This document shows positions 2,610 through 53,600 of a DNA stretch of 64,000 bases, piece after piece (position 1 is the first letter of the stretch; each line of letters begins with the position of its first letter). This DNA is from Raillietiella orientalis (Eukaryota), in NCBI GenBank assembly GCA_036172245.1, contig JAYWIR010000045.1, positions 1,364,001 to 1,428,000 of the forward strand. The letters run 5' to 3'. The notes beneath the pieces were generated by a model, which did not search any database, was not told the origin of the DNA, and was given only the letters and a program-made list of their open reading frames with translations. Made by a program: the position numbers and the translations under genes.

Positions 2610-3351
2610 CTACGATATGTCCATCGTCACCACGTGGACCGGATTTTGCTTTCAAAGGGCTGCAGTCAGCGCAAGAAACCGAAGGGCAACGAGCCAAAGC
2701 ATGGGCGCTCAGACAATACACGGAAACACGCCAAGCTCCATTTAACTCCTTTGAGATGGCGCCAGATGACTGTTGACTGGCATCCAAAAAGGAAAGCGAA
2801 ATTTTCCATCGAAAAGGAGCAACGCAAAAGGAATTCCTCTGAAGATATTCCGGTCAGGTTTGAGAACACGGGTGAGCTAAGCTGATCAGGGCATGGCGAA
2901 GACATGGAAATAGAAAGTGGCATCAGTTGAAGGAAAAGACCCTCAAAGAATGATCCGGCAACGTCGCTCAATCGGCTGACTGATCTCCGGACTCAAAAAT
3001 ACTTCAACATGATAGGAAAGAAAAGTATCGATCAAGGCTTTGCTTCGACGGCCCCCCAGCCTTACGAAGTGGCGCCTAACGCCACGAGAGACCAAGACAT
3101 CATAATCCCAGATCCCAGAGCGTTTTGAGCGCTCCCTGACTCGGCCTGGGGACTCCGGATAGGAGGAATGGGAACGTTGCGTAAGCCGGAAATCCTACAG
3201 GCACTCCGAACCATTAGTGTGCCGGACTTGTGGCGATGAGGAACAGCGAGGAAGGTATGCTTCGTAGGACATGAAGAAAGGCTTTTCTTCCTCCTCCCCT
3301 TCCCTTTCCTCCCTCCCTCATCGAGCGCCGAGCAGTAAAATTCCAACTTGC

Positions 3352-3565
3352 CCTTCGCTCGCTGTTCTCAGAGAACTCATCGTTCCTGTCGTAAGGTCCG
3401 TCGTGCAAAGGGAAGGCGGTGTCGTACACGTTTTTCATGAGGAGCCGGCCGATGCCGAAATTCGAGTTGGTGTAGTTGTCATACGAAGTTCGCTGGAGCA
3501 GTTCGTGAAGCAGGAAGCTTCTCTGACCGGAAGTGAAAAAAGTGTCTTTATCCTTAATGAGGAAT
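3352..3565 (-). CDS. Anoctamin/TMEM16 exon (N-terminal cytoplasmic domain)
   Basis: FLIKDKDTFFTSGQRSFLLHELLQRT...FGIGRLLMKNVYDTAFPLHDGPY...SERR contains the FF...QR and GI..Ll...vY..AfPLHDG motifs. Acceptor ctttccag; donor AGG|gcaagt (GC) joins in frame to KLYLEW. Confidence 0.9.
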
Positions 3566-5199
3566 CTGGAAAGATAAATGATCAGGGTGACCACTTTCGG
3601 GGTACACGCAAAAACACACACACACACATAAACACAAAAAGATGACCGATTCGTAGAGTGCTGTTGCCGATCAGCGGCAGTTCCTAGTGGAAACCACACC
3701 ACGGTGGAGTGGCCACATCGTGTGCAAAAAGTCTGAACACGGTCGCGGGAAACACAGACCAAGAATCTTCGGAAAAGACTTGGAGTGCACGAAGAGCGGA
3801 ACCCGCATGAGAGGAACGCCGAAAACAGCCTGCCTGAAATCTCAAGATCCAGAAAAGCTCTCAGCTAGGTGCAGTAACCAGGTCTTTCGATTGGATCATT
3901 AGACATGCTTTTCAGAAGCAGGCAAACGATTCCCAAGATTCAGTGCATCTTCAGGTTTCGACTAGTGAGAATTACGCCTCAGCTATAATGCTGCCCGTGC
4001 GCAAAGGTGCATCTCCAGGAAGAAATGCCTGTCCACTGGAGCTGCTGCTCGGTATTCCAGGAACGCATATGGTCCTGGAAAGAATTCAAATCCTCAAATG
4101 GGTGAAACGTCGAAACGGAATCGAGATGCTGCTCCCTTGCAATCTCTTACGCTCTTCACTTTCTGCGGAGGACCAATGTCAGCATCCCCCAAAGGCGTGT
4201 CCACACGTACCGTTACCACTGCCTGGAAGCCTCTACGGATCCGGACGAATCACTTGTCGGATCACCTCAAACTTCGCAAGAGCACCGCAGCGCGACCCTA
4301 CAACTACCCAGACTCGAATCCAATACCTTCCCAGGATTCTCCGCTCGTCCAGGACATCGAAATTCCCGAAAGTGGAAAACGTCCAGGAAGTTCGAGATTT
4401 TGAACAACCCCGTGAGCTACCGAGATTCTGATAGTATTATCGAAAAAGCCGCTTCGTGTCTGGCCAGGTCCGCCGAGTAAAAAACGAATTCCGCGCGAAA
4501 GTTTCGAAACTTGATGTCTACTGAAAGAGGTCAGTGAGACTTTCCTGAAACCTGGGAATAAAAAAGAAAAAAAAAAAAAGCGAGTTCACTGAAAATTGTA
4601 ACTCTAAGGAAAAACATCCGATGGAAGAAAGGCAGCTGGAGAGCTCTTTTGAGTTCGTTCCTGCCTCCCCTGGTACGCTTACATTTTCTCCCTAGCAGTG
4701 CGACGGGGTACAGCTGCTGCGAAGTGAGTAGCTATAACCCTCACGAGGATTGGTACAAGGCTGACTAAAAAATGATTCCATGAGATGGCACTATGATAAA
4801 AGAGTTTTTCTGCTGCCTCTCGTTTCCTCCGCTTCGCTGAAACAGCGAGTTCTCTTTGCACGGGAAGAAGAGCAACGAATTTTGCATGAGCAAGCAATTC
4901 ACAGGAGGAGGAACGCCATGGACCGCAACCATAGCCATGGGTCTAAGTCGAGAAAAACTTAGGAACACGATGAAGACGGCTCTTTCAATCTGGTAAGTCT
5001 GTTCGGAGACTGTCGTGAGGTACGCAACTGGACGAGAAAATGAAACCTTCTATTCCCACAGGAAGATCACGTGGCCTTCCCAAATCACTTGATAACAAAA
5101 CGAAAGAGTGTCCTTGAATTTCTCCCCATCTTCAAAAAACAGAAGAACCTGGTTGGTTGGTGTAAGGAGGCTTGCTTGAGGAACGAACCTCCCCCTTCT

Positions 5200-12062: not shown

Positions 12063-12233
12063 CGCGAGACCGAGTCTCCCTGCGCGAGGAGGCGCGCAGC
12101 ACTCCGACAAAGCGTCGCTGGTCGGTCGATAAGCAGCCAGACGCGACTCTACCCCCATGGCCGTAGGTTGCCCAACGGTCCCGCGCGCTGGCGCACGCAC
12201 CCTTAGCCGGGCGCGCCAACCGTCCTCAGCCAC
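12063..12233. repeat. 171-bp direct repeat, copy 1 (copy 2 at 15254-15425)
   Basis: Aligned by eye from cgcgaga to cagccac: 4 substitutions and 1 single-base indel versus copy 2. Confidence 0.95.
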
Positions 12234-14020: not shown

Positions 14021-14191
14021 CACCGTCTCGGAAAATTCCAGCTCGACGCCTTGCCTGCAAAGATTGGATTCGAACACTCTCCTCTGCTCGGCCACTTCCG
14101 GATCGTCGCTCTTGCACACTACCAAAATGTAATCGATTCGTCTGCGACCATCCTTGAAGTACAAGGCCGTGTTGAGAGACTTCTTGCGGCC
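14021..14191 (-). CDS. Anoctamin/TMEM16 exon (start of the N-terminal dimerisation domain)
   Basis: GRKKSLNTALYFKDGRRRIDYILVVCKSDDPEVAEQRRVFESNLCRQGVELEFSETV matches the yF.DG.RrIDyvLv...R..FE.nL...GleLE motif. Acceptor gttcttcag, donor GTG|gtagga, 171 bp, phase 0/0. Confidence 0.85.
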
Positions 14192-14251
14192 CTGAAGAAC
14201 AACAAAGACACACCTCGGTGAGTCGAAACAACGGCACTTGTGTGGACTTGC

Positions 14252-14350
14252 TTTTAGCTCCGAGGATCCCTTGCGGCTGTCTTCCTGCCTCCCATTGGTA
14301 AAATTACCAGGTATCGGTTGCTGGGTTTCTCCGGGAAGGTTATTCATCAA
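14252..14350 (-). CDS. Probable upstream anoctamin exon (non-conserved N-terminus)
   Basis: In frame with the next exon; acceptor atcgtag and donor AAA|gcaagt define a 60-bp GC-AG intron (14192-14251). No conserved motif, so support is splice signals only. Confidence 0.45.
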
Positions 14351-15253
14351 CTACGATTGCTCGGTGTGTCCAGAATTCAAATCCAAACAGACCGCAACTC
14401 TTTTAATCGAAAGCTACCACAGTCGAAACTGATGGGGTAACAAAGAAAACAGGTAATCTGTTGATCTAGAAAGTGTGCAGCTGGGCAAAAACGAGAGGTC
14501 AAGAAGACCTGCATGAAAATCTGCTCAGGCCCGCATTGCTGTCAGCAAACTTCCCCTTTCCCCAAGCGCGTCACGCGAGTGGTCAGGTGCAGTTGGCGCG
14601 CACAACTGGACCGTTGCGTCACCTAGAAGGACGAGCCATCATCCTGCGGAACCCCCACTGCTATCCAAACAAGAAACCTCGTTCCGCATGAGACAAGAGG
14701 TCGACAGCAACCCATCCCGAATGGGAAGTTTCCAACTTCTTGAGCGACAAGTTGATCGTGATGGCTCATCGATTGTTAATGATGCTTTCATAAGGAGCAC
14801 CAGCAACGCATCCCTCAGAGTTCCAGTGATTCTTCCCCTTTGATCTTGGCCATCAGAGCCTTTGATCTTCCACAAGGGGCGCCGCCAGTGATGCATTCAT
14901 CGGATTCTGTGCCTTTCGAACAAGGCGAAGTGGTGAACCCGCCTTATGAAAAAAGCAGTGCTGCCAGACACTGACGTGGAGCAACAGGTATTGAGAGATG
15001 CGCGGAAATACAGCAGCATACAGCAGAGCTCTGTGCGCAGCGAATACGCAGCCCAGCGCTGGCAAACAGGGATTTGCGAATTCCATAAAGGAACGGGGGG
15101 AAGACGGCCGAATCGATAACCCTTCTTGCACGATGACTGTTCGAAAGGTCGACATCCGGTCTGGGCGCTCGGGCTGGTGGACGGATGGAGCAACAGTAGA
15201 AGAATGCGGGGGGGGGGGAGTTCTAGGCCAGCATCCGGTCCCGGTTTGAGGAG

Positions 15254-15425
15254 CGCGAGATTGAGTCTCCCTGCGCGAGGAGGCGCGCAGCACTCCGACA
15301 AAGCGTCGCTGGTCGGTCGACAAGCAGCCAGACGCGACTCTACCCCCCATGGCCGTAGGTTGCCCAACGGTCCCGCGCGCTGACGCACGCACCCTTAGCC
15401 GGGCGCGCCAACCGTCCTCAGCCAC
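15254..15425. repeat. 172-bp direct repeat, copy 2 (copy 1 at 12063-12233)
   Basis: Same alignment as copy 1. Confidence 0.95.
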
Positions 15426-25103: not shown

Positions 25104-26500
25104 CACCTGGTTGACACCCGCTCACGCCGGGGAGTTTATTTATAAAATAAACAAGCGTCTGTGGCAGGACGTTCGATCCGGTCACGTTGCTTATAACTAC
25201 GAGAAGGAAGCTGCCGGGAACTGGCACGCAGGCCAGTGGAGTTCGCCTCGTCAGCACAGAAGGGGAGACAAACAAAAAGAAAAAAACAAAACAAAAAACA
25301 TACGGTCAAAAAAATGGGGGAGGTTTGGGAAGGGATCGCTGTGTACTGGAGGGTGTCCTCTGCATCCTTGCCGGGATACCGGTAAGTTGCTGTTCTAGAA
25401 TTCCCAGATGGGGGGATATTGACGCTGTCCTCATGAAGAGGATAGCAAAATAGATGGCGTCCCTGACGTTCTGACCTCCTCTGGAGTTGCTCCATGCAGC
25501 CATGGTTCCGCTGCATGGGCAGCAAAGTGCTGCTAGGGATGCAACCGTTGTGAGGGCGTCTCGCAGGAAGAGGCTCTTTAAAACTCTCTGACGTTGCTGC
25601 CGGGGATTCCAAGGATCTCGACAAAGAGTCGCCAAAGGGGCCGGAGGGCAACACACGCCAATAGGAAGTGCGGGAGGGACTCCCGCTCCCCACACCTTGC
25701 ACAGTTTGGATCCACACACCCCGGTGTCCAATGATGCTGGCGGGCATGGCACTGCATTGCATTGATGCGACAGTGCAGCAGAATCAATGCTGACTCCTGC
25801 ACTTTAAGAGGAGAGTGCGGGTGTTCATGAGCACCGGGGGCCACTGCAGGTCTTCCTCCAGGATACCCAGTAGCACGCCCCAGCACAAGAGTCCATGAGG
25901 TTGAGCACTCGGGGTCGCAGCGTCGGTGGGCTGGCCCTTCGTCCACTCTCCCGGTCCTTCGATCCTTCCGGAGATTTCCACAGGAACCTCCCATCTAGCC
26001 GTAAGGCTTCTGCTGCCCACGTGTTCCCTAAGGGAGGGCAGTGCGACGGCGAGGGAAGTTCTGCTTGCCTACGCACTCTTCGCGGGATCTTCCAGCATCT
26101 CGCGGACCGTGCAGAGGAGGCACCTGGTAAATCCGGAGAGGCGAACCTGCTCCTCGATGGATCCCGGGAGAATACCGCCGGGCAGTCGGAGCGCCTCCGC
26201 CTTGAGCCTTCAGCAATTCCGTAGTTTGGAGCGTCGCGGACGCCACAAGGACGTACGGAAGAGTTTCCATGACTCCGAACTGCACGCATTCGCTGAAGGT
26301 ACTCCCAGCGAGTGCATGGTTGCGTTCCGGGGGAGTCCCCAGTGCACCACCGAAATGGCGATGTGCTCCCAACTCAGAAGGAGGGCATCGATCAGAGAGC
26401 ACGAGATCTCCAAACTTTCGTGGATGATCCCAAGGGAACCCTCCTCTCACTTTTGCGGACGCTGAGCAGAGTCCGTAGGCATGCTTTGGAGTGAGACCCC
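25104..26500 (-). mobile_element. 3' part of an L1/Tx1-like LINE (zf-RVT region and 3' UTR)
   Basis: CARCGERESLPHFLLACVALRPLW is a CCHC zf-RVT motif. Clear homology to 32421-33050 (LFLRDAL..ALCC..RDAIYF), then a U-rich 3' UTR and AATAAA. Confidence 0.8.
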
Positions 26501-30290: not shown

Positions 30291-30299
30291 GAAGGGGGA

Positions 30300-30640
30300 G
30301 GATTTGGCAAATCAAAAGCTAGACTCATGACTAGTGGGAAAAAAGTGACGTTTGATGATGTTGCTGGAATTGATGAAGCAAAGGAAGAGTTGGTAGAAAT
30401 TGTTGATTTTAAATTGTTGTTTCTTAAACAAAGGCAAAAATTTCAAGTGTTAGATGGAAAAATACTAAAAGGGTGTCTTTTAATTGGCTCCCCTGGAACT
30501 GGTAACACCCTACTCGCTCGTGCAATTGCAGATGAAGCTAATGTGCCGTTCTTTAGCATCTCTGGATCTGACTTTGTCGAAATGTTTGTTGGTGTTGGTG
30601 CAAGCCGTGTGCATGATATGTTTGATCAAAGCAAGAACTC
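30300..30640 (+). pseudogene. ftsH: Bacterial FtsH AAA-protease fragment, Wolbachia-like (candidate nuclear endosymbiont transfer)
   Basis: [106 protein letters not shown] covers the FtsH AAA N-part with Walker A. It is intronless, truncated at both ends, and an AT-rich island within GC-rich flanks. The FtsH identity is firm; the Wolbachia assignment rests on recalled sequence. Confidence 0.93.
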
Positions 30641-31639
30641 GTAAGGACACTGCAGCTCATCCGCGGAGAAGGAAAGTTGGTGGCCCTCCCTACGCTTGCG
30701 TGCTTCTTCCTTGCGCCGCCTTCTGCGCCGTTCCACCTCTCTCTACATCTTCTACACCTCGGGTGGAACATTTCGGACCTCATCCGTTCCGAAAGCACGA
30801 GTCCGCTGCTTCCAGAGTTCGTCATCACGCCATCGGCGGCTTTCTTCTCCCCACCACCGTCTTCCCACTGAAGTCCGACTGCTCTTCCCGCTGGAGAGTC
30901 CTATCCCTGTTTTTCCTCTATCTCTCTTCTGAATCCAGGATTTACTGGCGATTTTTTTCCTCCTCCGCTTCTTTCTCTCTTCTCTCCTTTATTCCTTCTC
31001 CTCTTACATCCCTCCTCCTCCTCCTCCTCCTCTTCTTCCTTGCATGGTACTCGGAAGGAACGCGTCCCTCCAGGACTCTCCGGAGATTTTTCCCTCTTCG
31101 TCGGCGGATCGCGAGGAAGATGCGCCTTCCGTTCTTCAAGTCCCCTCGGCGGACCCGGCAAAAAGTGAGAGCGGCTACGATACATGGAGGCTGGAGGCTT
31201 GGACCTCGATCTCCCAAGAATCTGCTGAAGATCCTGCGGATCGAGGCTCGTTCTTTCGAGCGGGATGGCGGGAGTGGCATTTCTGCAGACTCCTTGCGGT
31301 CTTTCCTCTCCGTTCCTCTCCTGCTCCCGTTTCATTCGGCTCTTCCGGAGGTGCGAGAATCTGCAAAGGACAAGGATCCTATATTACATCTCTTCCTGTC
31401 GGCATTGCATGGGACCCACACGCCGTCTCCTGCACTTTTCGGACTTCTAGCTCTCTCTCTAAGAGGTCAAGTCAAAGAGGTCCTCCCCCAATAGTATCTC
31501 CTCGGCGCCTCAGGTAGGCTGGAAGTGATCTCGATAGGTGCCCATGCTTCCCCTCTTCCCGTTTCCCCTCCCCCCTACTGACAACGTCAATCTCCGTAGC
31601 GATGCCCGCCTCACTCCCTCAGCAGCATGGGCACTCTGT

Positions 31640-33055
31640 GTCCTCTGGATTCAGAACCAGACCATTCGGAACCTCAGGCTTCTTCCTAGCCATCGTCACA
31701 TCACTTATGGAAACGCCCTCTGGGGCACAGGGAGGCCCCGTGTCTGCCTGAAGGACTTGTGCGCTCCGCATCGCGACGGAGGCCTTGGCCTCCTGATGCT
31801 GGAACGCCTGGAGAGGTAGCTCCGGTGGAGGACGCATGCCCTAGTGACGAAGCTTTGCGGCAAGAACTGGGGCGAGTCTGCAAGATACCTGGTCAAGCCA
31901 GCCGCCGGCCACGCGGCACTGTCTTCGTTCCTGGCGCGGCGGCGCAGACGCAACGTGTCCCGCTGCGGACTGAAGCTCCGGCGAGTGGCCATGCTGACCA
32001 GGACCGACAACTGGATCTTCTGCCGACCCGTCAACGGTAGTGCCTACTTGGAGGAAACCGTTCGCACATGGGCCAAGAACAACGGAGCGAGCCTGGAGAT
32101 GCAGCAGCGACTGCTGCACTCCTTTTACAGCAACCGCTCGCTACAGGACGTCATCGTGCAGCTCACCAGTGCGCGTGGGCACAAAGAAACTCCCTAGCCG
32201 CGGCACTGTCCTCACTCAGGGAGCACCGGGGCAGTAAACAGCTGGCCAAACGGTAGGTCAGTTGCGAAATTATTCAGAAGACGAGGGAACTAGGTTGGAC
32301 CACGGTCCAGATCACGGACGCTGCGACTCCAAGTGTATCACCGAAAGGGCCATTGCGCTGGGATGAGCTGCTGGGAATCCCAGAGGAAGCGCTGAAGAAC
32401 AACCGGGCCCTCTCCCTGAAGTGGCAGGAGTCGACGCTTTTGCTGTTGCACTGGGGCCTCCCGTGCAACTCCCGCTAGTCTCATCTGATCCGGGGGGCTG
32501 TAGACCGCAACTGTTGCAGGTGCGGGGAACGGGATCCCAGCTACCGCACCTGCTTGTAGACTGTGTTGCCCTCCGGCCCCTGTGGTTGCACTACGCAACG
32601 ACCCTTGGCTCATCGACGGACAATCCCAGGAACGTGATGAAGCGCCTTTTCGTGCGCGATGCTCTTCCGCCTGCTGCATCCCCAGCAGCTCTTTGCTGCC
32701 AAAGTGGGACTGTGGAGGCCTGGAGCTACGCCAGAGGAGGACGGCGCGACAGGGACGCCATCTGCTTCTCCCTGCGCTTCCTGTGGGCGGCAGCTGGGAC
32801 CCATACTCGGATGGAACTTGCCGACAGCCTGGAAAGGGTGCAGAGGACGCCCTTCAGCACTCGGTGATCCCTTCCTGTGCCCCCCAGAGTTTTTTTTATT
32901 ATTGATTTTTCTTTTTGTTTGCCCCTCCCCCTCTGCTGCCGAGGCGAACCTCGCTGGCCTGCGTGCCGGTTACTCGGCAGGTTACGAGCATTATCGGACA
33001 ATGTAGGGCCGATGGCCCTACACATATATGTTTAGTTTTTATAATGAACGCCCTG
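31640..33055 (+). mobile_element. 5'-truncated degenerate L1/Tx1-like LINE (RT C-terminus, zf-RVT, 3' UTR)
   Basis: LWG..PRVCLKDLCAPHRDGGLGL is the L1-clade lc.pk..GGLGl motif. A frameshifted NCCRCGE..PHLLVDCVALRPLW zinc finger follows; the ORF ends at 32867, then a U-rich tract and a hairpin. Confidence 0.85.
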
Positions 33056-33545: not shown

Positions 33546-36500
33546 TCGAATGCAACAGAGAACTGCCTTCAGCACCGTCAGGGAGCGTCCTGCCCGGCTG
33601 GATGACCGCGCGCGGAGGAGGCGTGGGGGAAGAGGAGACTGCATTGCGCAAGAGTGAAGGAGGATCGTCGCTGCTGGTGTGCGGAACTCCTGCTCGACTT
33701 CCGAGGGGTCTTCCAGACCACGAAAGGGCGCGTGTTTGCGCTGCTACGGAAACAGATCCCGGTCGAGAAGCCAGCTGGAGAGGGAATCCGCCTATGTCTT
33801 TAGGAGCAGCCGCCGGCCTGATCGAGGGGGAGGCGTTGTCTGGAAAAGCGTTCCCTTCTGAAGAGACTGGATTGGGAGCCATCCCTAGGAGAGCACCACT
33901 GAGGAAGCTCGAACTTATTGGCGCCGGGCACGCAGTGAGAATCATTCTGGCAGCAGCAACGACTAAATGTAGAGTACGTGCGAGGGTCCCGGACAGGTGG
34001 TGGATCCCGGAGGGACATGTGTCCTGGATCGCAGCTTCAGTTCGGCGGGGGGGCGAGGGGAGGAAGTGAAGCGTGTCGATGCCTCCGTGGCTGCTGCACT
34101 TGACGTCGGACGCGGATGAGTCCTGAGCTCGTGCCCCTGTGGAGCTCCGGTCGAAGCCGGAGAGGGAGATCGCAGCAGCCTGCAGCGCGCGCGGACCCCA
34201 CGAAAGAGGAGGCTCGGAACCACGGGAAGCGAGGGAGCTTGGAGTCGGGTTGTCGGCCTAGGAAGAGGCGATACAGCTTTGTCCCCCGAACGGAGTTCCC
34301 GCTTGAACGAGGCTGCCCCTTGGGGACGCTTGCTGCCCGAGGCCATGCGCGACCTGTGGAGAGATCGAGTCTCTCCACCAAGTACAATACACGCTTCCTC
34401 TGGGAATGCAGCGCTTCCGAGAGACGGAAAATGGAAATGTGCGCTCGCGGGGATCCGAGGGAACGTTTGTAGTCCACTAGCGGAGGGGGAAGGAAAACGG
34501 GAGCCTCTTCCGGAAAGCGAGGTGTGTGCTGGAGACCTACAGGGTGTGAGACAGGGGCAGAGGTGGAACTCCATCGAGGGAGGGATAAGGACATCTCCCC
34601 GGATCAGATAAGAATCCCTGAGATGGCACGAAGACAGGTCATCAGATCATTCGGCTTTGTTCCCTCCGGTCAAGAAGCCGCCACTCCCTGGAACGCCACC
34701 ATACTCACCGTGGAGTCCACCGCACCGCCTCCTCTGATTCCAGGTCCCGAGTCTCCTCGAGGGCATCTCGGATCCGTGGGTCTGAGTGACCCCGGCGCCT
34801 CGCTCCTACGATGCTTCGCCGCTCCTATGCACAGCGGAGTGGGGTGGGGGTTGTGCGTGCGCGATCAAATCACTTTGTGGGGTTTTTTCTTTTGCTTCTG
34901 GGCGGCAAGAGATCGGCTAGAATGGGACGGCAGGGGTGCTCCTTAGCGTACTGGACGTCCTTGGTCCCCACTCCTGATGCCCGCCTTCACCCTGATGCAA
35001 GAACGAAGGCCGTCTTGTCATCGAAACAGCTTCCCCGTTCCCTTCGGACGCCTGGCTCTTCTTTCCTGTAGATGGCCGACCGGAACAAACCATTTTATAT
35101 GGACGAGGAACCGGTGCTCAACGGGATGAAAGGGAGCGGACCGTGAACTGTTGAGTAGGTGGGGCTGAACGGCGCTAAAAGAGCTGCTCGCTTCACTTCC
35201 CCATAGAGGTCAAAGCATCCCGGTCAGCAGCACTCGTAGTGGGAGAGCGGAGGACCTACCGAGTGGACATGAGTGTTGCCCCAAAGGCGTGGCCGGGAGG
35301 CTCTGCTACGGCACGTCGGCGAGCTGGGAAGCACGAGCACGGGAGTGGTGGTCTCTCGGCTACGCGTCCCCGCGCGCGCGCGTTTTCGTGCTTGCAGCCC
35401 CCAGCCTGCTTCCCACCACTCCCTGGGCGACAGTCGGTCCCAACGGGGAACAACACGCGCTCCCTCCTCCGACGCGGAGAAAGAGGCGTTGTGCTTTGGC
35501 CGTCCCTCAAAGACGCTACTCGGCTCCGTAACCTCTGACATCCGGCATACTTTCCACGATTCCGTTCTATGTGCGTGGGTGCAACGCGTGTGGCTGGTGT
35601 TTCCTCGCGTGGAACGCGCCACCAGCAGTCAGCTGTTCGCGACCTGGGGGAGGGGGGGAGCAGTAACAAACGCGTTCGGGTTGCGAAAATCCCGGACGCG
35701 TCGCTCCTCCCTCCTCCCCCGAGCTTTCAACGACGTCCGCAAACCCGTTGGAGCTCCGCAAGCCCTGGCGCTGTCGTTCCCGCCCGTTCGCCCTCAGTCC
35801 CTCTCTGCAAACTTCCGCGCACTTTGTGTGCGACCTTGATTTCACGTCACTATGGAGCGCAGTTCCGCGTGACTGCTGCGCGGAACGCCCCGAGCGAGGG
35901 CACTTCTGGAGGGCTAGCCACAGCTGCAGTTTTGCGCCCGTTTCCCACGTTTACGGTTATTTCGGTAATGCAGGACCGCGATCTTCAAATCCGTTCCCTG
36001 TTCTCTCCTTTTGTGATTCCAGGTAAAAAGTCTCGTTCCTCCTTAAAAGTAAATGCGTAGTGCGTGCGTCGTCGCCGTTTGTGCGCGCTTCCCCCTTTTT
36101 TTTTTTTTTTTTTTTGTTTTTTGGTTTCCAGCAGCGCCAGGAAGCGCAACGGATTTGTGGAACTCCTTTGCTGGCTTCGGATGCTCTTGCAGCGACGACG
36201 ACCATCTAAGAGCAAGCGAAACACGAGCTTTTGGATGTTGGATACGAATCCGAGCAGGTGAAGAGAAGTCACTCCTGAAAAACGGAAAATGTCGACGCAA
36301 ATGCGGGTGAAGCGCATGAGCGAAGCCTACGCGGAGTTCATGTCTGGCGGCAGAAACCACCCGGGTTGTCGCTTGAACTGATGCTGTAGAATGGTCCACC
36401 CCGCCCCAATCGGGAAAAACGTCCTCACCTCTCCGCGCAGTGCTCCCACCTATGGAAAGCACTGATTGCATCCCAGGCATTGTACCGGGAAAACATAGAA

Positions 36501-39500
36501 ATCGCAGCTGCGGCCAGACCAACCCCATTTCCGCCACCTACAGCTGCTGGTGTGCCGAAGGACACCACAGCACTTCGGATGCCAATAAGTGCTAATGGGA
36601 GAAGTCCTATGGAAAAAGCTGCAGGCATACAACCAACAACTCCGACATGGTGTTCTGGAAGCCCAGGCGTGCTCTGCATTTTTGCCCGCTCCCTTTGCAC
36701 TCTCTCGCACAATGGCAACTCTTCCGTGAAATGTGCTCTTCGCGCTTCATTTTAGCCGCTGAGCAGCCCTACGCATAGCTCAGCAACCCATCCCTGTGTT
36801 GTTGTTGTTTTTTTTTGTTTTTTTGCGGGTGTTTGCAAGATTCCGGGAGTGCGACACCATGGGATGTTTTTTTTTTTTTGAAATTTGCACAAAGGAATTT
36901 GGGGTACTCGTCCATCTAGACTTGGAAGGAGCAGACGGGCATTTTTTTTTTTTGGCCTGCAGAGGCCGAGTGCAAGGCGAACTCATTAAGAGGCTCTGCT
37001 ATTTTCAATCCTCTGAGTGATCGTTCAGATGATGTATGGAACTCGATTGGATACGCATCTCGTTTACTAGCTCGGTGTGTTTCCCTGTGCTAAAGGGAAT
37101 GCGAGGAATTTTTCCCTCCACGTTTCTTTCTTTAGAGATGATCCCTCCAGGAAAAAAAGAAAAAAAAAAAGTTGTATCTACTCATCAACGAATCAGCACG
37201 TTCCTCCTGCCTCCTCTAATTCTGACATGTTTCTTGCATCTCTAGAATAGCTCGAAACTACCCTTCGAGACGATGAACGTCGTTCTCCGTGCTGGAGCGC
37301 GAGACGAAACGCGCTACTAGGTAACCGGATCGATCACGGTACGAAAGCCTACATTCCAGTGTTGTGTATCTCTGATCTCGAACTCTTACCCTCATTACGC
37401 ACTTGGTGCAATAAGACCTTGTAGTTCGCTGTGGGGTCTCACTTCATTAACACAGTCGATGCAGGCCGTGTTTCCAGCAAGCAGCGTTTCTGCCGGTGTG
37501 TTTTTGTAAACCGCGAAGCGTGGATACACCAGAAACACATCGGCAGATGCCCACTTCTTCTATGCTGGAACCATTGACAAAAGTTCACGAACATAACTGT
37601 GCACGCTTTTGCATACCAAAGAAAGGACAGGTCCTAGACATACGACTTCCGTGTGCGTGACCATCACCGATAGGTCTGTAATTCGAAGCAGCTCAAACAG
37701 ACTGTACTTTTAGATGAGTCGGTGAATCTGAGATGAGTAGAGTCGTTTAGAAGGGCAGCTGATTTATTCTTGCAAAGTGCATTTTGTGTGTGTGTCTCCC
37801 CTTCACGAAAAACGAGATCCCTGAAACTAATGCTTTCCCCTAGACTCTGGAGTAATCGATATACTTTGTGTCAGGGTATTTCACTGCCCGTCTTCAACAG
37901 TTACATTTTACTTGGAACCACTGAAACTTTTTTTTTTTCTCTCCCTCCTTTTCTTCTCGAAATCCCGTTCTTGGTGATACGAAGTGTTGTTCTTGCTGAA
38001 AACCCGAGGACGTCCTGCAACTTGCACTTCGTTAGTGGTTCAGTGTAGCACGAAGCTTATAACATTCAGCTGGAAGCCACGTCCAACAGCATTTTTTTTT
38101 TTTCTTTTTCTTTACACGAACGTGCTCAGAAGCAGTTGGAGAAAAGTGATCCTTCCGTTCTTCATGCCGGACGCAGAATCGTCTACCCAGGCTGCAACCA
38201 TGATTTCTTTGCGTCTGTGCCAACAAACTAGCAAGCCAGAAGTACCGATTCACCTTACCACGAATCGGGTCCAGCCGAAACCATCTAGAGAAGAAGTGCG
38301 AGTCGAAACGAAGCATTTGAAACAGCCAAACGAAGATATTTCTCGTAATTTTCATTTAAAAACGTTAAAAAATGGAAAAAAGAAGTGCCAAAGTACCGAC
38401 GTCAAACAGAAAAAAAATAATTGCTGTTAGTTGCTCAAGAATAAATTTAAGCAATTCAGATTCGCTTTACGTCTTTTCGTTTCAAAGAAAAGACGGCTGT
38501 ATTTCTGAGTGTAGAAAAATTCAATATGAAACACTGTAATGCAAACATTTTTCTATCCATGAACTTCGTATGGACAACAAACTTCGAAAACTCTTAGTTC
38601 TCTCAGTTGAGAGAATGCTAATGTTTCCACCATCACTTGCATCAGTTGAAGCATTTCTCTAGTTGAGCCTACTGTGCTCTGTCTACAGTCTGAAACATGG
38701 AGAATTCTTGAGATTTCTGGTATGAAAATCAGACGTCCAGCCAGACGTTTCCATAGCCACAACTTCACGTAATTGCAGTTGCAGTTACCTGAGCATTCGA
38801 TTCAATGTCAAACACAGACAGAAGAAAAAACGGTCAACGAAGAATGGTAAGTCTTTAGCATACGCGGACAGATTTAGTCAAAGAGTCTCTCTACAAACAG
38901 AGGAACCGATACTAAAAAAAAAAAAATGACAAAGTAGAAGATTGTAGCGGCTCGTTTCCTATGCAAAAAGGTCGTAATTGACGTTGAAAATGGAACTGAT
39001 GCTGATTTTCTTGCTTGTTCAAATGTGAAGATCTCAGCCCTGGAGGATTTCGAATTTGTTGTAAAGACAGTGGAAACAAACGGGCTAACTGTTCCAGCAA
39101 AGCAACACAGCACTTGAAAATGCCTTAGAAAACGCACACAGCAACACACAGATTTCTACAAAACTTAAAAGGGTCACAAATGATCAGAAGACCATTAACA
39201 AGAACACAGTTTTTGTCTAACGCTTCTCGATAGGCGAAACACAAAAATTGGACAGAACTCCCCTGCAAGTGGCCTTTGAATTCAAAGAGTTCACCTCCAA
39301 ACGCCTTGACTTACAGCGAGAAAAAAACGCCCATTTCAGGATATTTGATTAAAGACCTATTTCTTCCACAGCTGTCGTTCCAAAGCTTTCGTTCGTCCTC
39401 CCATGTCGCTTTTGGACTTCCACCAGGCAGATCGCCACTTTTCGTTTCTCAAGCCGTGTCGGTCAAAGTTTTTGCCTTCGAATACCGATGCGTGGCTCCT

Positions 39501-44590: not shown

Positions 44591-47500
44591 GATGAAGAAA
44601 ATAGAAGTGGAGGATTAATGAACATTCATTATATTCGCTTTATAGAATGACAACAAGAGTAGCTTCATACGAGTTTGGAAGACTTCGGAGCTTCGTCTGT
44701 AGCAGGAAATTTATTTCAGAAGAATATAAAACAATATTCTTATTTATTCTAAACACAACTTCATCACTTGAAAAGATTCGATTCTATAGATATTCTTCTA
44801 AAATCACAAAATTTTTAAGAGGAGTTGTATTTCAAAGCGGACACAAATCTAAGAGAGAGAGTGGACAGACCACAACATTGCCTTTTTGCTTGCTAAAAGG
44901 ATGCAGATGCTATGATGTAGAGAAAATGGTTCACAGATGATCTCCCTCTTCTCAAAACATCGAGAACTATACTTGACGTTTCCTGAGTAGCTTACACTTT
45001 TCGTTTGATATGTAATGGAACGAAAATTAAAGGAAAATTTAAATCAGAACAGATAATGAAGTACTTTTAAAAAAGCCTTCAGTAGAAATTTAATTTTAAT
45101 GGGAACAATTTATTGGAGGAATTCTTGTTAATAGAATTTTTAAAAATTGAAACTGTGTAATCAGTCTAGTAATGAAAAGAATTCATAAGGAAGTGTTTTC
45201 GTAAGCGTTTTTTTTTTATTTCATAAATATCAGATGTATTGTATGTTTTCACATTAATAGGACTGCTTTCAAGAGAACTTGACAAACTTTCAAAATGGCA
45301 TACATCATTAAGGGTTTAGTGTCATGAAACCTCATTTTGAGAAATCTGAACATTTAGTGAACGATGTATACCATCGGATTGCTTATGCGATTACTTATGC
45401 GTCATAAAATTCGAAACCTATATAAAGAAAACTGAGAGATATTGGAAAAAAACTGGAAAAGCATTGAAAAAAAATATCATAAAGTATATTTATGATAACA
45501 AAAATTGCACAAATATAAAGAGAGAAGAATTTTATAAATATGAAGAAAAATAATTAATGTTCTCTGCATCAGTCTTTATTCAGATACACAAACTATAAAA
45601 TTAAAATCAAAAAAGGGAAAATGGGACAAAATTTAGTAAGTATTCAATTAATGCGATTATTTAATTATATTATCTGAAGATGTTTTTTATGATTGCAAAT
45701 AAAATTCAAGTTTAATAGAAAAATACAATTTCTGATCTGGAACTTTCAAATTATGATTATAAATTTATGAGTAGAATCAATGAACTTGAATGTAAGTAGG
45801 GATGGTATACTTTTCTCATCAATATTTTCTAGTCAAATTAATTTGAGAAATCGACAAGATTTTGACAGAATGCTTTTGGTACTCCGTACGCTTCTTGGTG
45901 ATGGAAATGACAGTATATCATAATAAGTGTTAACAAAGAGTGTTTATGATCTCAATGTGATAATTTGCAAAACAAAGTGTGAACACGAATTTTGATAGAC
46001 AAATTATTGAATTACTTCAGTATATGATTGTAACAACATCTAACTTCCATTGGCAGCTGTGTTATGTGTAGAAGAAATTGCGTTGTACTTGTATTCATTA
46101 TTTTGCACTTTGCATACCTAAGGAAAGCATTTATAGTTTGTTGAGCATAAATGTTTCCTGTTTCTGACCCAGAACAGTAATTTTTTGTATGGATACATCT
46201 AGAAAAACTTGGATTATCATAAACCAGAGGAATATCAGAGTTCAAGAACTTGATGTTAGCATGTTGCAGGGAATTTCAATTTCTTCAGTTATGTAAGACT
46301 TTCTTATTGTATGAACTGCTTTCATTTATGAATGGAGGAGTGTAAACAGTCATAAAGTAATTAATATTCATGGTTTTTAAGTTCTGCTAGATATTATTGG
46401 ATATTTCATATCATGCGATTAACCAAGCATTGCATATTCACCAAAGTGGATTTACAACTTTCAGGAGTGCATCTTCTATGATTATGATTACTACTGCTGA
46501 AGATGCATTTTTAGTTTTCCTGATGTCACGCATCTTATCATGACTTTGGAAGATGTGTGTGTGTGTGTTTTTTTTGTTTTTTTTTGTTTTTTTAAAAAAT
46601 GGATTTCAGCTTGCATACTTTATAGTATAGCCTTATCTAGACATGTACTATACAATGAAAGACTAGCACATTAAGCATATCATTATTGGTTGCATACTTA
46701 AACGAGAATTGTTTCCCAGCAAGATTCACTTGCAAATTTACATTTAGGTCAAAAAGTTACCCGGTAATAATGAAAATTAAGAATTGATTTTCATGAATAA
46801 ATATTTTAAACCTGTTTTGATTATTCGTTTTGTAATTGCGAACTTTTGAATTTTGATTGGCTTTAATGTATTGAATAACAAGAGATATTCTGTTGAAATT
46901 TTGTAACTGTTGCTACCTTCCCTGTTGCCGATGATTGGCCATGTTGGGTGCTTGTTTAGTTTTGAACCGTTAATGATGTTTTTTAGAGAAAATGTTTCTG
47001 TTTATTTTCTTTCGCAGTTTATTTCCATAGTTCTTTCACCAAAACCTTATTTTTCTTTTCAAAGTGAATTAATGAAAGTTCATGTTTGCCACACTGTTTG
47101 AATATGTTTTGATGATGATGTGTTGTGATCTTTGTCAGTTGTACAGTTATTTTGAAGTATTGTATGCTGTGTGATTTGAAAACACTCATGGCAGTTTCAC
47201 ATGAATCCCATTATCATGATGATCTGTTGCTTGTGATTATTAATTATGTAGTTATGGTTATTTTGTTATGCCTGTAGGTAAAGTGACTGCTTGTCATTTA
47301 TTTCGAATTAGAATTTCACACCTATATTAGTAACTTGAAGTATTCAAAGTACATTACTGTGTTTCACCCTTGTAATAGCGTTTTTCACTAACCAATACTC
47401 TGCAAGCAGGCCTCTCTAATTGGATGTCCTTGTTACATTAGTTATCCTGTTTCTTCCAAGAATTCTTTTTTGTTCTGTTAACATTATGTGAAATGCATCC

Positions 47501-48083
47501 AGTTTTGCCGAGAACATTGTGCAGTGATTAGTCAGTAAATATATGTTTTGGCTTTTTTGTTATGTTGTTTTTACACAAAGTGAATATTGTTTATCGTTTG
47601 CAGCGCGGAAGTTTTTCTTTTGTTGTTGTTTTTACTTCCATTTCGACTAAGTAAATTAGTTTGAGATGAGATAGTTTACAATACTTTAACATTGGTGCAT
47701 CTGACAAATACATTAGTAAATAGTGTTCCCAGAAATGTTCAGTGAATAATTCTTTTAAGTGATGATTTTTGAAGTAATGTTAGTGTTACTTGAAACCGTA
47801 AATAAGTTTGACTCCTAGATTAATGGCTTATTCATTTTTTATGTGCTAATAGGAAATTTCTTATGTCCTAATGACTACTTGTTTATTTGGTTCAACTATA
47901 CTGCATCTTAATTTTCCATTAGGAGTAGAAAACTTGCTCAGTCTTCAAAGAGGATGTAAATTTAGCGTAATGTTTCAATTAAGTGATTTAATTTTCTTGA
48001 TAATTGTGTTAAGATGTCCATGCATTAGTCAATTATGTTTTGTGATTTCAGAGTGAATTTATCATTCTGTTGCAGCGCCACAA

Positions 48084-50678
48084 ATGGCTGCTGAAACTCC
48101 TGGACATTTGAGTGCGACAACAGATAGTTTTTCAGCGACAGATATAATTGAAAAAACTACACCAAGTGATGTTCTTTGCTTGCAGAGTAATGTTCCGTTT
48201 CTTGATCAAGAAGAGTGTCCTCAGTTGAGACTGCATGCCCCTTTGATTTCCACACCAAAATCTTTGGAATGTCACAAATATAATAATCTGATTTCCAATT
48301 TTACTAATTTGACAGACGTTTCAAAGATTGATGACCTTCGACTAGATAAAAAGAAATTAAAGTTACAGCTTGTAAAATTAGAAATAGGACAAACAGCCCC
48401 TGTATTGTTGAGTGTGAACAATAACAAATACCATATTAATCAGAAAACGTCCTTAGACAAATGTGAAACCAATGGAAGTACCCCAGAAATGAGGCTAAGC
48501 TTAAGTACTCATCTTTTATCATCCGATGAGAAAGTTGTTCCTCATAAAAGAAGACCTGGAAGACCAAGGAAAAGAGTTCTCACTGAAGAAGAGAATCAGC
48601 GTCTTCTAGAGGATGCAAATGAACGCTCCTTGTCTGAACATGATGATGATACCCTAGTAAGCAAACGCTCTAGCAGGCGGATTCGAAAACCCCAAAAATT
48701 TGCTGACTATGAACTCAACTTGTCTAAATTAAGTGGTAAGCTTCGAACTGAACCCAGCCGTAAGTCAGCTGAAACTCCATACCTGGATAATATTGTAATA
48801 CCTGAGTGCTCTTTGCCTGAAATAGAAGTCTCAACACACAATGTGCAGAATATTAAATACTCGTTAAATGCGTTAAATGATGATAGTTCTGGTTCAAAAA
48901 CCGGAAATTCTGTTCCCAAAGTGGAAGATTCTTTGGTTTTGTGTAAGTCTCAGGATGAGAATCCGGCAGTTGATGATATTGATGCCTCATTATCTGCTTG
49001 TCTTTTTGGAGATAGACCTATCATCAAAGTGGTAGAATCTGAAATCTCTAAATCTGAGTCGGCTCCTCAGACCAAAACAAATACCCATATGAATCCATTA
49101 GCTTCTCTTACTGATGAAGGCCTGATTGTCATAGAGCCAGAAGAAGCAGAGATGCAGTTTGTTTTGCAATCATCCCCACCAAATAAAGAGGAACCTTGTA
49201 AAATACGTAGACGTAAGAAAAATATAGAAATCCTGGAATCTGGTCAAGATGTTAGTCGATACATAATCTCTCGTACTGAGAGATTAACTGAAGAAGATAG
49301 CATAGAAGGACAGATTAGGTCAAAGAACAAAACAAAGTGCTTGGCCACATATGTACAAGAGCAAGGCATTGTGCGTGATGGCTTAGTAGAATGTCGCATT
49401 TGTGGAAAGTCTCTCAAGTTATGTTCCTTCAAACAACATTTGCGTACACATGAAGGAGTAAAGCCCTTTGAATGTGGGATCTGTGGTTCATGTTTCACTC
49501 GTAAAGGTGATGCTGAACGCCATATTCGTGTTGTCCATAAACAAGAGAATTTGTATACATGCTGTAAGTGTGGTCGAAATTTTCAAGATAAGAAAAACCT
49601 GCGATGGCACTTACTGAATCATGACAAGAAAATGGTGTATCAGTGTGAATATTGCGGTTTTAAATTTGGAAAGAAGGAATATTATGATAACCATGTAAAG
49701 TATATTCATGAATTGGGAATTTTGGAGGCTGGTGTTAATTCTCCGAGTTCAAAACTAAATCAGCAGTGTTCTCCAGAAAGTATCGATAGTGGAACTGTTA
49801 ATAATGATGTGGTCAAGATTCAGCCTCCTGATGCTTTGGTACCTTTTTCTGTGACTAATCAGACAGACAGGAAATCAGATGTTGAATTGACAATTACTAC
49901 ACAGCAAGCTGATACTGTATTGCCTGGACGAATGTTTCAAATGGGCACAGATGAATTGGATGCTGCTGCATTGGTTCGTGAGCTAGAGTCTGTTATTGGT
50001 CAAGACCAGAATTCTGTCATTGTTATGAATGAGGCTGATCTGTCAAAAGTGCTAATATTAAATTCCAATCAGGTAAATACCACAAAAGAGGAATCAATCT
50101 TGCCATGTACTGTTATTGCAAAAGATGCATCTAATGGTAATAGACCTATTACAGTGAGTGAATCGAAGCAAAATGTGTTAGATATAGTTGGATGGTCAGA
50201 CAGGCAGAGAACTGATTCAGACTTGTGTCTGCATCTAACAAGTGATGAAAACAAAAACAATGATAAAGGAAATTCTGTAGTTACTGATCAAGCTAAGCAG
50301 AGTCAGATAGTTCATTTCCTTAGTGATCCTGTGGATCCAGTCAAAAATCTGTTCAATACATCACAAAGTAATGAACTGATAGTGTCAGATAATACTGCTT
50401 GTACAGAAGAGAATTCACATGCAATTCTTTTGCAAGCAGGTGATGAAGATTTTGAGCAACTTTTAATGTCAAAAGATGGAGCTACTATGCTCCTTATAGC
50501 TGATGGGAAAGCAGTACCTGTGCAGAATCTGGTATCTGATGATGGCCAAACAATGCGTGTGGTGATGGAAACATCAGATGGACATGCACAGTTGTATGAA
50601 GTGGAGGAAATAAGTGCTGAGGAAGCAAGATCAGCAATCTTATCTCTGGATGATTCAGTTGCACTCAATAGGCAGTGA
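48084..50678 (+). CDS. AT-hook plus 4x C2H2 zinc-finger protein, 864 aa, single coding exon
   Basis: Long ORF in AT-rich DNA. AT-hook KRRPGRPRK; fingers CRIC..HLRTH, CGIC..HIRVVH, CCKC..HLLNH, CEYC..HVKYIH, with an EGVKPF linker. Acceptor tgttgcag ends at 48075; several AATAAA downstream (for example ~51236 and 52201). Confidence 0.95.
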   Translation: MAAETPGHLSATTDSFSATDIIEKTTPSDVLCLQSNVPFLDQEECPQLRLHAPLISTPKSLECHKYNNLISNFTNLTDVSKIDDLRLDKKKLKLQLVKLEIGQTAPVLLSVNNNKYHINQKTSLDKCETNGSTPEMRLSLSTHLLSSDEKVVPHKRRPGRPRKRVLTEEENQRLLEDANERSLSEHDDDTLVSKRSSRRIRKPQKFADYELNLSKLSGKLRTEPSRKSAETPYLDNIVIPECSLPEIEVSTHNVQNIKYSLNALNDDSSGSKTGNSVPKVEDSLVLCKSQDENPAVDDIDASLSACLFGDRPIIKVVESEISKSESAPQTKTNTHMNPLASLTDEGLIVIEPEEAEMQFVLQSSPPNKEEPCKIRRRKKNIEILESGQDVSRYIISRTERLTEEDSIEGQIRSKNKTKCLATYVQEQGIVRDGLVECRICGKSLKLCSFKQHLRTHEGVKPFECGICGSCFTRKGDAERHIRVVHKQENLYTCCKCGRNFQDKKNLRWHLLNHDKKMVYQCEYCGFKFGKKEYYDNHVKYIHELGILEAGVNSPSSKLNQQCSPESIDSGTVNNDVVKIQPPDALVPFSVTNQTDRKSDVELTITTQQADTVLPGRMFQMGTDELDAAALVRELESVIGQDQNSVIVMNEADLSKVLILNSNQVNTTKEESILPCTVIAKDASNGNRPITVSESKQNVLDIVGWSDRQRTDSDLCLHLTSDENKNNDKGNSVVTDQAKQSQIVHFLSDPVDPVKNLFNTSQSNELIVSDNTACTEENSHAILLQAGDEDFEQLLMSKDGATMLLIADGKAVPVQNLVSDDGQTMRVVMETSDGHAQLYEVEEISAEEARSAILSLDDSVALNRQ

Positions 50679-53600
50679 AGTGTTTCTAATGGAATGGTTA
50701 ACAATGTATTCAATATTTTTCTATTATGAATTGTCTCTTTGTTTGCTATGTTAATATACCCTTATTTCAAGGCTGTAAGCATAAATTGATAATACCAACA
50801 TAGCAAACATTTTTGAAAACATGCTAAAAATCTCTATTTTCGATTAGCTTCAGCCAATTTGTATGGTTTTGCCCGTCCTTATCATAAATAAATTAGTACC
50901 AATTATTTTTTGATTGCATTTTATTTTATTTTTTTACTAACAGTCAGATTTTTTTTTAATTTGCTTTAGTTACATAAGCTGACATAGTTTTTTTTCATAT
51001 AAATTTTCATTTCAAGTTTATGTACTCATTTCAGTTGTGTATTTATGAATGGCAGTAAAAGTTTCTTGCTAAAGTACGTTAAGAAAAGCAAGCAAAGAAA
51101 AAATTTGTGAATCTGTGAGTACCACAAGTTTTTGACCTAGTTGTACCAAACTTCCAGATCTTGCAAACTTTGCAAATACATAGCTCAGTTCAGGGTATTT
51201 TTTAAAATTTAGGGGAAATCACGTTTCCGTTTGTTAATAAAAAATTGAATGGAACTTGCTTTTGAGGTTTTCCATTGAAACAAGTGCACAAGAAAAAAAC
51301 AATGCAAATCTTATGATGAGGATACAGTTTTGCAGCAGACTGGGGTGTAATAAATTGCGTATTCTGTGATAAATATGCTGTCCTAGTGATGCTGAAAATG
51401 AATGAGAACTCTTCTTATTTTTTTGTTTTTTGTAACATCGCTGATAGTTTGATAGTTAATAATTGCTACTGAAATATCACATAATTTTCATTAAAACAAA
51501 CTGCTTAAGCAAGGAAATTAAATGTAGGGTTACTGGACCGTAACAGTGGGCATCTAATTTTCCAAATAGTGGTTTTGGCTAATATACCATGCAAGATGAA
51601 TTATTTTTTGATTGGTTTATGAGCTTGATTGTAATACAACACTCACTCATTGTTTTGTTTATACATTTGGGCAGAACTGAATATAATTGCGCACATAAAA
51701 TAACTGAAAATAAAATATTGATTTATGAAATTATTCTTTCTGAAATTTCACCCTGAAAATTTATTGTGTTGGTATTTGTGTGGGGTACCAATAATTGATG
51801 ATCATTATCATGTTTCTTAACTTTAGGGCTTTGGTTAAGCAACAAGCCTTTGAATTATGCACTATTTGAGGATGAGTCTTTTCAATGCGTTGATTGTACC
51901 CACATAGATTGTGCATTTTAGCATGATGATATTGCATCCAGTCCAGTTGAATTTGGACATGTTCCTGGAAAGTTAAACATATTGTTCTATAGATTGTTAG
52001 AAACAATTATCTAATCATCAATACATTAGTAGTAAGACAAATCATAATGTAATTGTTTTGTATGAGGTGCACCAACAAGAGGTGATGTTGGATAAAGAAA
52101 TAGCCCCAGTGTTACATTTATTTTGAATCACCCACAGTGAAAATCAGTAAGCTCACAGGAAAATCCAAGTGAAGCTGTTTTATTTTTAATACTACTAAGA
52201 AATAAATGCTCTTTTTCTATTTCTTCAATATAAAATTCTAGCTCAATCAGAAACTTGCAGATTTTTAGGAGTTGTGGAGTGGATGTAATGATTTCCAAGT
52301 TTATGAGTTCTGATTATAAAAGTGTTTGTATGTAGTTGTGGGGAAATCCCAAAAGTTCCCGTTTCCAATCCCATGTAAAGGCTGAGAACTAATGCATTTA
52401 GATGGAATATTGCTTTAACTGATTTTTGTTACACCAGTCAATCCATGTTTAGCTTACGTATTTCAGGTTCCTTACTGGTGTCATTGGCATTAAAGCCATG
52501 ATTGTTTAGCTTGAATTTGCTATTTTCGAGAATGCTTCCCTGTTTAACATGCTTACATTCTCTAGTATGATGGCATGGTTGAAACACCCTGCAGTTTTCT
52601 CATGTTTTTTTTTTGTATTCTGACTTGAAAGCAGCTCAATAGTAGTGGGAGTTGGCTCTACGGATGGGTTATTTGCCATCTTTGCAGTTCATTCAAAGAA
52701 CGTTAATGTTAAATGTGTTTGACTATTTATCATTTGGTAAGATTTAGAGTAATAGTGTGTGGAGTCATTTCAGAGATCTCTTGAATTCCCGTAAATAGGT
52801 TTAAGCAATTTACTAAGAATGTTTTTCATAAATTTTATTTTTCGAAGGTTATGCAAAACCTATCCAAGTTAAATGCTCACAGCTGTTTCAGTTATGACCC
52901 GTCAAGCCAAGCCTGTGTGGAGCAACGCGCGCGCGTTCTATTCAAAGGCCAACATGCATTTCTTGATGTTAAGCATCATGTTTTTTATTCTTCGTTAAGA
53001 TCGAGGCCGAGAAAATTCACCCCATGTCTCACATTGGATAGACAGCGCTATCTGTGCCCACCCAGTTTCAAGGACGTTTCCTTTCGTTTTTTGCTGAAAG
53101 GAAGCGTGTCGGCCACGTACGAACAATTCGAAATTTTTGTGGCATCCCCCGGTCCTGTGGTGGCAAAAATATGAGGATCCTGTGGTTTTGAATCCCCATG
53201 GGAGAGAGGAGTTCTCCAAGTATTTGCGGCGCAGCTTGGAGCCGCCCGGGTCTCGTCCGTTTGTGCCATTCTTTCCAGCTTGAACCGGACACGTTGCGAC
53301 GAAACCGGCTGCATCTCCATTGGAACACTTGGAAATGTTTTTTTTTTTTTTTTGCTCTTCAAGTAATGAAACCCCACCAAATAGTAGCAAGCAGGGGGAC
53401 TGTGGGCTCTGCAGGAGAGTGGTGGCGGCTGTGTACACAAGGAAGCAACGTGTACGTTACGAAAGCGAAAAGGAGAAATTCGATCGGACCACCTCGGTAG
53501 TTCCGTGTTGCGTGAAAACACGGAGTCCGCTAAACAAATTCGCGTGTTTCGATCCCCATTCCTTTTTATTACTGGTTGAAAACATGATTCAGTATGGGTC

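Follow-up and report, generated by a model that had tools for sequence, protein, structure and literature searches.

The window, the whole 64,000-nucleotide stretch of DNA that was analysed, was animal DNA with anoctamin exons and a C2H2 zinc-finger gene, and three short Wolbachia pieces were located in it. The features of the window are given below.

3217..3864, minus strand: host anoctamin exon frame, later part of the dimerisation domain (Pfam PF16178)
13793-14350, minus strand: anoctamin frame, start of the same dimerisation domain (Pfam PF16178)
30303..30637, plus strand: Wolbachia ftsH fragment, codons about 143-252 of about 610, a pseudogene piece
36447..36583, minus strand: second Wolbachia-like piece, 137 bp, part of the gene for a hypothetical glycine/alanine-rich membrane protein
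48057..50678, plus strand: host C2H2 zinc-finger gene, 873-codon open frame (Pfam zf-C2H2), between the second and third Wolbachia pieces
52152..52247, minus strand: third Wolbachia-like piece, 96 bp, 5' end of a glutamine-synthetase-like gene

The host genes were investigated using Pfam and protein searches. In the assembly, they flanked the ftsH piece at distances of 16 kb (left) and 17 kb (right), and the DNA on both sides of the piece was non-Wolbachia. The PF16178 matches of the two anoctamin frames had E values of 2.4e-19 and 2.2e-9. Since successive parts of the dimerisation domain were found in two minus-strand frames, the anoctamin was read as a split gene. A search with the anoctamin exon gave no match at E <= 1e-10. 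In the case of the zinc-finger protein, the best relatives showed 59-64% identity over about 110-120 amino acids and came from termites, cockroaches, odonates, a mayfly, grasshoppers and stick insects. Proteins of beetles, bivalves and birds came next, with 25-40%. The BLASTP homology was confined to this block of about 110-120 amino acids, and all of the hemimetabolous orders listed matched it alike at about 60%. In the protein atlas, the matches of this protein were limited to generic clusters of vertebrate zinc fingers. On these grounds the host was placed among the arthropods, probably as a hemimetabolous insect or close to such insects. The observed/expected CpG ratio was 0.23-0.51 over 46-52 kb, which holds the zinc-finger gene, and 0.8-1.1 over most of the window. 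The depletion over the gene would correspond to the pattern of gene-body methylation.

The preliminary description had placed the ftsH island between GC-rich retroelement debris. The flanks were indeed GC-rich, with GC contents of 0.628 and 0.552 over 500 bp on the left and right, respectively. However, the retroelement part of this description was not supported. A Pfam scan was performed on 239 reading frames, which were all frames of at least 110 amino acids in the window together with those of 60-109 amino acids in 28.5-32.5 kb; strongly decayed or non-coding elements may escape such a scan. No retroelement domain was detected in the 239 frames, where anoctamin and C2H2 zinc fingers were the only domains matched. 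In addition, the flanks of the ftsH piece were not repeated within the window, and no Rfam family was matched anywhere in the window.

DNA alignment with three bacterial ftsH genes was performed to define the extent of the ftsH piece. Wolbachia ftsH homology spanned exactly 30303-30637 on the plus strand, which was 335 bp, and it was abrupt at both ends. Beyond 30303 and 30637, the window and the bacterial genes were unrelated. The stop-to-stop frame at 30291-30644 on the plus strand gave 117 amino acids. It matched positions 143-252 of the 598 in the profile of the FtsH equivalog TIGR01241 with an E value of 5e-54, and Pfam AAA with an E value of 5.6e-15. The TIGR01241 score was 184 bits against a cut-off of 600, a shortfall that is expected of a fragment. 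The piece corresponded to the N-terminal part of the AAA+ module with Walker A included. Compared with a functional FtsH, the piece had no transmembrane N-terminus and nothing of the M41 peptidase domain, and most of the AAA+ module was also missing. The piece carried no introns, and its GC content of 0.385 was Wolbachia-like. When it was compared with one 1.45-Mb Wolbachia genome by blastn, the E value was 2e-126, which was far beyond chance. The frame was closed by one stop 12 bases upstream of the insert and by another 7 bases downstream of it, and was thus not fused to host coding sequence. These results confirmed the AT-rich FtsH island cut mid-gene at both ends that had been proposed at 30300-30640, and both peptides quoted for it earlier were present in the 117-residue translation.

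The source of the piece was investigated at the DNA and protein levels. DNA matches were found in 93 of the 98 Anaplasmataceae genomes. In the nearest Wolbachia genomes (L081 and L083), 300 of the 323 aligned bases were identical, which was 92.9% with the 12-bp gap not counted. With this gap counted, 57 genomes of the family matched the whole piece at 79-90%, and the remaining family genomes gave 77% or less. Ehrlichia, Anaplasma and similar genera were at 77% or below. The trend at the protein level was similar. In a search restricted to longer proteins, for which 120 matches were listed, the named proteins at 83-90% identity were all Wolbachia FtsH. Among these matches, proteins of the other Anaplasmataceae (Anaplasma, Ehrlichia, Neoehrlichia and Mesenet) showed 77-81%, and those of other alphaproteobacteria showed 73-78%. 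Wolbachia led this search by identity and not by HMMER score, where the top two were partial proteins from a Caulobacteraceae MAG (74% identity) and a Chloroflexota MAG (65%). Among species-representative genomes, the best protein match was L001, a MAG labelled Rickettsiales bacterium, with 91%. It was followed by the Wolbachia of Psylliodes chrysocephala with 88% and by Ehrlichia canis with 77%. L001, which is the same as L081, fell within the Wolbachia clade of the ftsH tree described below. In addition, 101 of the 107 alignable codons of the fragment were identical to the Wolbachia FtsH consensus. The identities therefore bore out the earlier assignment to Wolbachia FtsH, and best identities to eukaryotic or non-Rickettsiales proteins, the outcome that would have spoken against it, were not observed.

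The 120 listed proteins included one row with a eukaryote name; the other named rows were bacterial and many rows carried no name. This protein (P0007), recorded for the beetle Callosobruchus chinensis as a 756-residue 'unnamed protein product', was of the Wolbachia FtsH type and 88% identical to the fragment, and OmpA-like and PP-loop families were among its precomputed domains. Its gene model was probably drawn over DNA derived from Wolbachia. In the case of L114 (G085:C1:1378585-1381907), the ftsH frame was open over only 485 codons with its start inside the gene, compared with 609-617 codons elsewhere. This gene may be disrupted, or there may be an assembly error.

A maximum-likelihood tree was constructed to place the fragment within the family. 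It was built from 66 full-length ftsH genes (56 that grouped with the named Wolbachia sequences, and 10 of Mesenet, Ehrlichia and others) and the fragment over 1911 columns, using the GTR+F+G4 model and 1000 ultrafast bootstraps. Family genomes with a match at a contig end or a weak match, such as G084, G071 and G067, and most non-Wolbachia members were omitted. The fragment was nested within Wolbachia, and the deeper splits from Ehrlichia, Mesenet and the other outgroups were supported at 96-100. It attached at the base of a clade of 12 tips. The split of the fragment plus the clade had an ultrafast bootstrap value of 87, and the clade without the fragment had 74. The branch of the fragment itself was 0.071 long. 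L087, the best genome outside the clade, matched the fragment at 298/323 compared with 300/323 for the best clade genomes, only two mismatches worse.

The FtsH proteins of two clade tips, L121 and L129, were identical letter for letter to the NCBI proteins of Wolbachia from the chewing lice Meromenopon meropis and Menacanthus eurysternus, strains that are assigned to supergroup F in the account of PMC9903615. The supergroup F label of the clade comes from these two named proteins and this one paper. Strains of a bed bug, termites and filarial worms are also named under supergroup F in a passage of PMC12693587. As the preliminary description had called for placement among the Wolbachia supergroups, the outcome was that the fragment joined the clade holding the louse strains with moderate support. 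It is moderately well indicated, by 323 + 96 bp of the ftsH piece and the third piece, that the donor belonged to or adjoined this clade. However, the fragment differed from known supergroup F members in that it was located at the clade base, 7% from the nearest member, with 17 synonymous differences. This basal position and distance meant that the donor strain was absent from the 98 family genomes searched.

We compared the fragment with the consensus of the ten nearest genomes and found 23 substitutions. Seventeen of them were synonymous third-position states, each shared with 2 to 45 of the 56 Wolbachia. This sharing is the signature of divergence in the donor strain while ftsH was under bacterial purifying selection. 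The other six were amino acid replacements (G183D, P187L, K200N, G209D, R236H and G242S), none of which occurred in any of the 56 Wolbachia. The private replacements and an insertion of the fragment are given below.

30408..30419, plus strand: 12-bp in-frame insertion, an imperfect tandem duplication that adds KLLF within the conserved VDFLKQ motif; its placement is ambiguous by a few bases
30506, plus strand: Walker A lysine to asparagine (K200N; AAG to AAC; GTGKT to GTGNT); base in 0/56 Wolbachia ftsH
30454, 30466, 30532, 30613 and 30630, plus strand: the five other private replacements; base in 0/56 Wolbachia ftsH

Five of the six replacements were G>A or C>T changes, and five of the six fell on invariant columns, where 87 of the 107 residues of the stretch were invariant over the 56 Wolbachia. 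The fragment had six private residues; among the 56 Wolbachia the median was 0 and the highest count 4, the latter in very divergent lineages. The 12-bp insertion corresponded to a gap in all three aligned bacterial ftsH sequences. Tandem Repeats Finder gave a 14-bp unit repeated 2.2 times at 30397-30428, which covered the insertion. Because the piece is truncated at both ends and carries six private replacements, including that of the Walker A lysine, and a 12-bp duplication, it is dead DNA, with no sign of function. About 6-8 changes since the transfer were estimated in 323 bp, or about 2-2.5%, as the six replacements plus about two expected silent changes. This would suggest an insertion age on the order of millions of years, depending on the host mutation rate.

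The whole window was compared in four parts with five Wolbachia genomes, and also with the complete 1,451,416-bp genome G069 of the nearest clade using sensitive blastn and tblastx. The comparison with G069 gave exactly three Wolbachia pieces, located within 22 kb, two of which had gone unnoticed in the preliminary description. No Wolbachia piece was found in 1-20 kb or 59-64 kb of the window. In the case of the second piece, identity was 80% to G069:557528-557663, 82% to G040 and 81% to G079, and it was matched in 6 of the 98 family genomes; the corresponding frame of G069 was L145 1355-1867 on the minus strand. The window copy was G+C-shifted relative to the Wolbachia copies. With 80% identity and few Wolbachia genomes carrying the gene, the donor of this piece is less certain.

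The third piece showed 96% identity to G069:1450965-1451060 and to G075, and the corresponding frame of G069 was L146 910-1638 on the minus strand. Its best genomes, at 93-96%, were G075, G069, G077, G079, G082, G001, G080, G065, G049 and G081. These best genomes of the glnA-like piece were exactly the ten non-louse (non-reduced) members of the ftsH clade. The next genome was at 91%, and G062, the genome of L087, was at 85%. Since the best matches were the ten genomes of the ftsH clade, the third piece gave independent support for the same donor lineage. It sat 1.5 kb downstream of the host zinc-finger gene. A fourth candidate at 50879-50962, with 74% identity to G001 and an E value of 2e-5, was rejected. 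It was low-complexity sequence of 14% GC aligned with gaps and was absent from G069.

The three pieces corresponded to positions of about 967 kb (ftsH), 558 kb (second) and 1451 kb (third) in G069. Their source loci in Wolbachia are unlinked, and in the window the pieces alternate with host sequence. It is possible, though doubtful, that they are the remains of one larger Wolbachia insertion that was broken by deletion, rearrangement and host sequence turnover, and not three small captures. Such an origin would be consistent with the location of all three within 22 kb of the 64-kb window and with the same donor clade being indicated by the ftsH and third pieces. However, the source loci are 410-480 kb apart in G069, a distance to be read with the poor synteny of Wolbachia that is described in part of PMC9903615. 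In addition, an apparently intact host zinc-finger gene lies between the second and third pieces, and the identities were unequal (93%, 80% and 96%). We lean towards separate events or heavy rearrangement, which are favoured by the intact host gene and the unequal identities.

The three pieces probably record, as a fossil, a Wolbachia infection that is either past or still present. The ftsH piece is very probably an ordinary nuclear Wolbachia transfer (NUWT) from a supergroup-F-like donor, with junctions known from the assembly alone. This reading follows from the Wolbachia ancestry, the truncation at both ends, the private inactivating changes, the non-Wolbachia flanks and the host genes on the same contig. 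The horizontal transfer into animal nuclear DNA that had been proposed for this fragment was thus supported. In the proposed mechanism, DNA would have been released from Wolbachia in the arthropod germ line, where residence of the donor is presumed. A host chromosome would then have taken up the released DNA where it was broken, most likely through end-joining repair, and the captured piece would since have decayed as non-functional DNA. Neither junction of the ftsH piece showed microhomology, and the mechanism of insertion is entirely our inference. In metagenome contigs, no exact match was found for a 31-base word spanning the left junction.

Other explanations of the ftsH piece were weighed against this reading. 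It could be argued that the donor was another symbiont of the Anaplasmataceae or Rickettsiales, or that the piece is a diverged host gene for a mitochondrial AAA protease of the AFG3L2, YME1L or paraplegin type. FtsH is highly conserved, many alphaproteobacteria showed 70-77% protein identity, and the nearest named genome record was labelled just 'Rickettsiales bacterium'. However, this genome was nested in the Wolbachia clade of the ftsH tree, and DNA identity dropped from 93% in Wolbachia to 77% or less in the rest of the family. The glnA-like piece matched Wolbachia-clade genomes alone, save for one weak match with an E value of 8e-4. In the case of a host protease, the piece would be expected neither to lack introns nor to differ so strongly in GC from its flanks of 0.55-0.63, and the sole eukaryote-named entry among the 120 listed proteins was itself of the Wolbachia type. 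Either origin is hardly credible against these data, and a Wolbachia donor is supported over both the host mitochondrial protease and another Rickettsiales genus. The GC-rich flanks had also suggested a plastid-derived ftsH (NUPT) in an alga; this was set aside in view of the 93% DNA match to Wolbachia and the animal neighbour genes.

An assembly artefact or contamination, where Wolbachia reads of a living symbiont were wrongly joined to host DNA, was also considered, as the junctions are read from the assembly. Mixed assemblies are frequent from Wolbachia-bearing hosts, and one Wolbachia-type FtsH was annotated as a beetle protein. However, a chimeric join would not yield a piece of just 335 bp with host-like DNA on both sides. 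The six private replacements at otherwise conserved residues and the 12-bp duplication also argue against it, and the loss of the Walker A lysine would be expected to disable an essential gene. Given these private inactivating changes, the fragment is not a read from a living symbiont. Moreover, three pieces from unlinked Wolbachia loci would require six false joins within 22 kb. We consider an artefact very unlikely. Domestication, in which the host would transcribe the fragment and employ it as a regulatory RNA, as an exon or for a small peptide, would be compatible with the 117-codon frame that is still open. However, only about 8 changes have accumulated since the transfer, and an open frame is expected by chance. 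The stops close to both ends of the insert exclude a fusion to host coding sequence, about one sixth of the protein is covered, and the Walker A lysine is gone. The replacements fall on invariant residues, as expected of a sequence free from constraint. A role in the host is therefore extremely improbable, and the ftsH piece is best regarded as a decaying NUWT.

NUWT cases are found in a beetle, a fly and a grasshopper. This kind of event is well known, with many documented examples from arthropods and nematodes, and the ftsH fragment is one further instance. Like other NUWTs of these hosts, the pieces are short, intronless mid-gene fragments that lie scattered in host DNA of the assembly under neutral decay. 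The donor supergroup of such fragments can be assigned by phylogeny, here with moderate support, and they can serve as a fossil record of infection. Old NUWTs usually measure a few hundred bases and are scattered, with a mean of 434 bp in Onchocerca, according to the survey of filarial nematodes in PMC12693587; the sizes here, 96-335 bp, are in the range reported there. The present case differs in that the non-coding DNA of the host is unusually GC-rich, which makes AT-rich inserts conspicuous, and one 64-kb window was examined. The nuclear copies of mitochondrial and plastid DNA (NUMTs and NUPTs) would be similar in the capture of stray DNA at chromosome breaks and its subsequent neutral decay. 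However, their source is an organelle, whereas the source here is a facultative or obligate bacterial symbiont.

NUWTs record past symbioses. When fragments are dated and assigned to a supergroup, they reveal former carriage of Wolbachia and its supergroup even if the infection has been lost. Sets of NUWTs help to reconstruct host switching by supergroup F, the sole supergroup common to insects and nematodes. Such fragments also lead to false positives in PCR- and read-based Wolbachia screens and to false "bacterial contamination" flags in genome curation. More speculatively, the host might come from an arthropod lineage with no recorded Wolbachia infection, and the pieces might then be the first (fossil) evidence of a supergroup-F-like Wolbachia in its germ line. 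In that case, a much larger ancient insertion, since shattered, could be marked by the grouping of the pieces around a host gene within 22 kb. We regard this combination as unlikely on present evidence.

The composition and repeats of the window gave further observations. Low GC (0.29-0.38) and CpG depletion were confined to 46000-52000, and GC reached 0.67 elsewhere; for a locus of an arthropod, this contrast in composition is unusually sharp. The tracts at 10000-36000 and 58000-62000 were GC-rich (0.55-0.67) and carried many long open frames on both strands, in which neither a Pfam domain nor CpG depletion was seen. At 25208-26074 and 32173-32983, an inverted pair of about 870 bp with 65% identity bracketed the ftsH piece. 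The two members may be old copies of a repeat that is unclassified. In addition, a direct repeat of 179 bp with 96% identity, at 12056-12233 and 15247-15425, flanked the anoctamin exon at about 14 kb.
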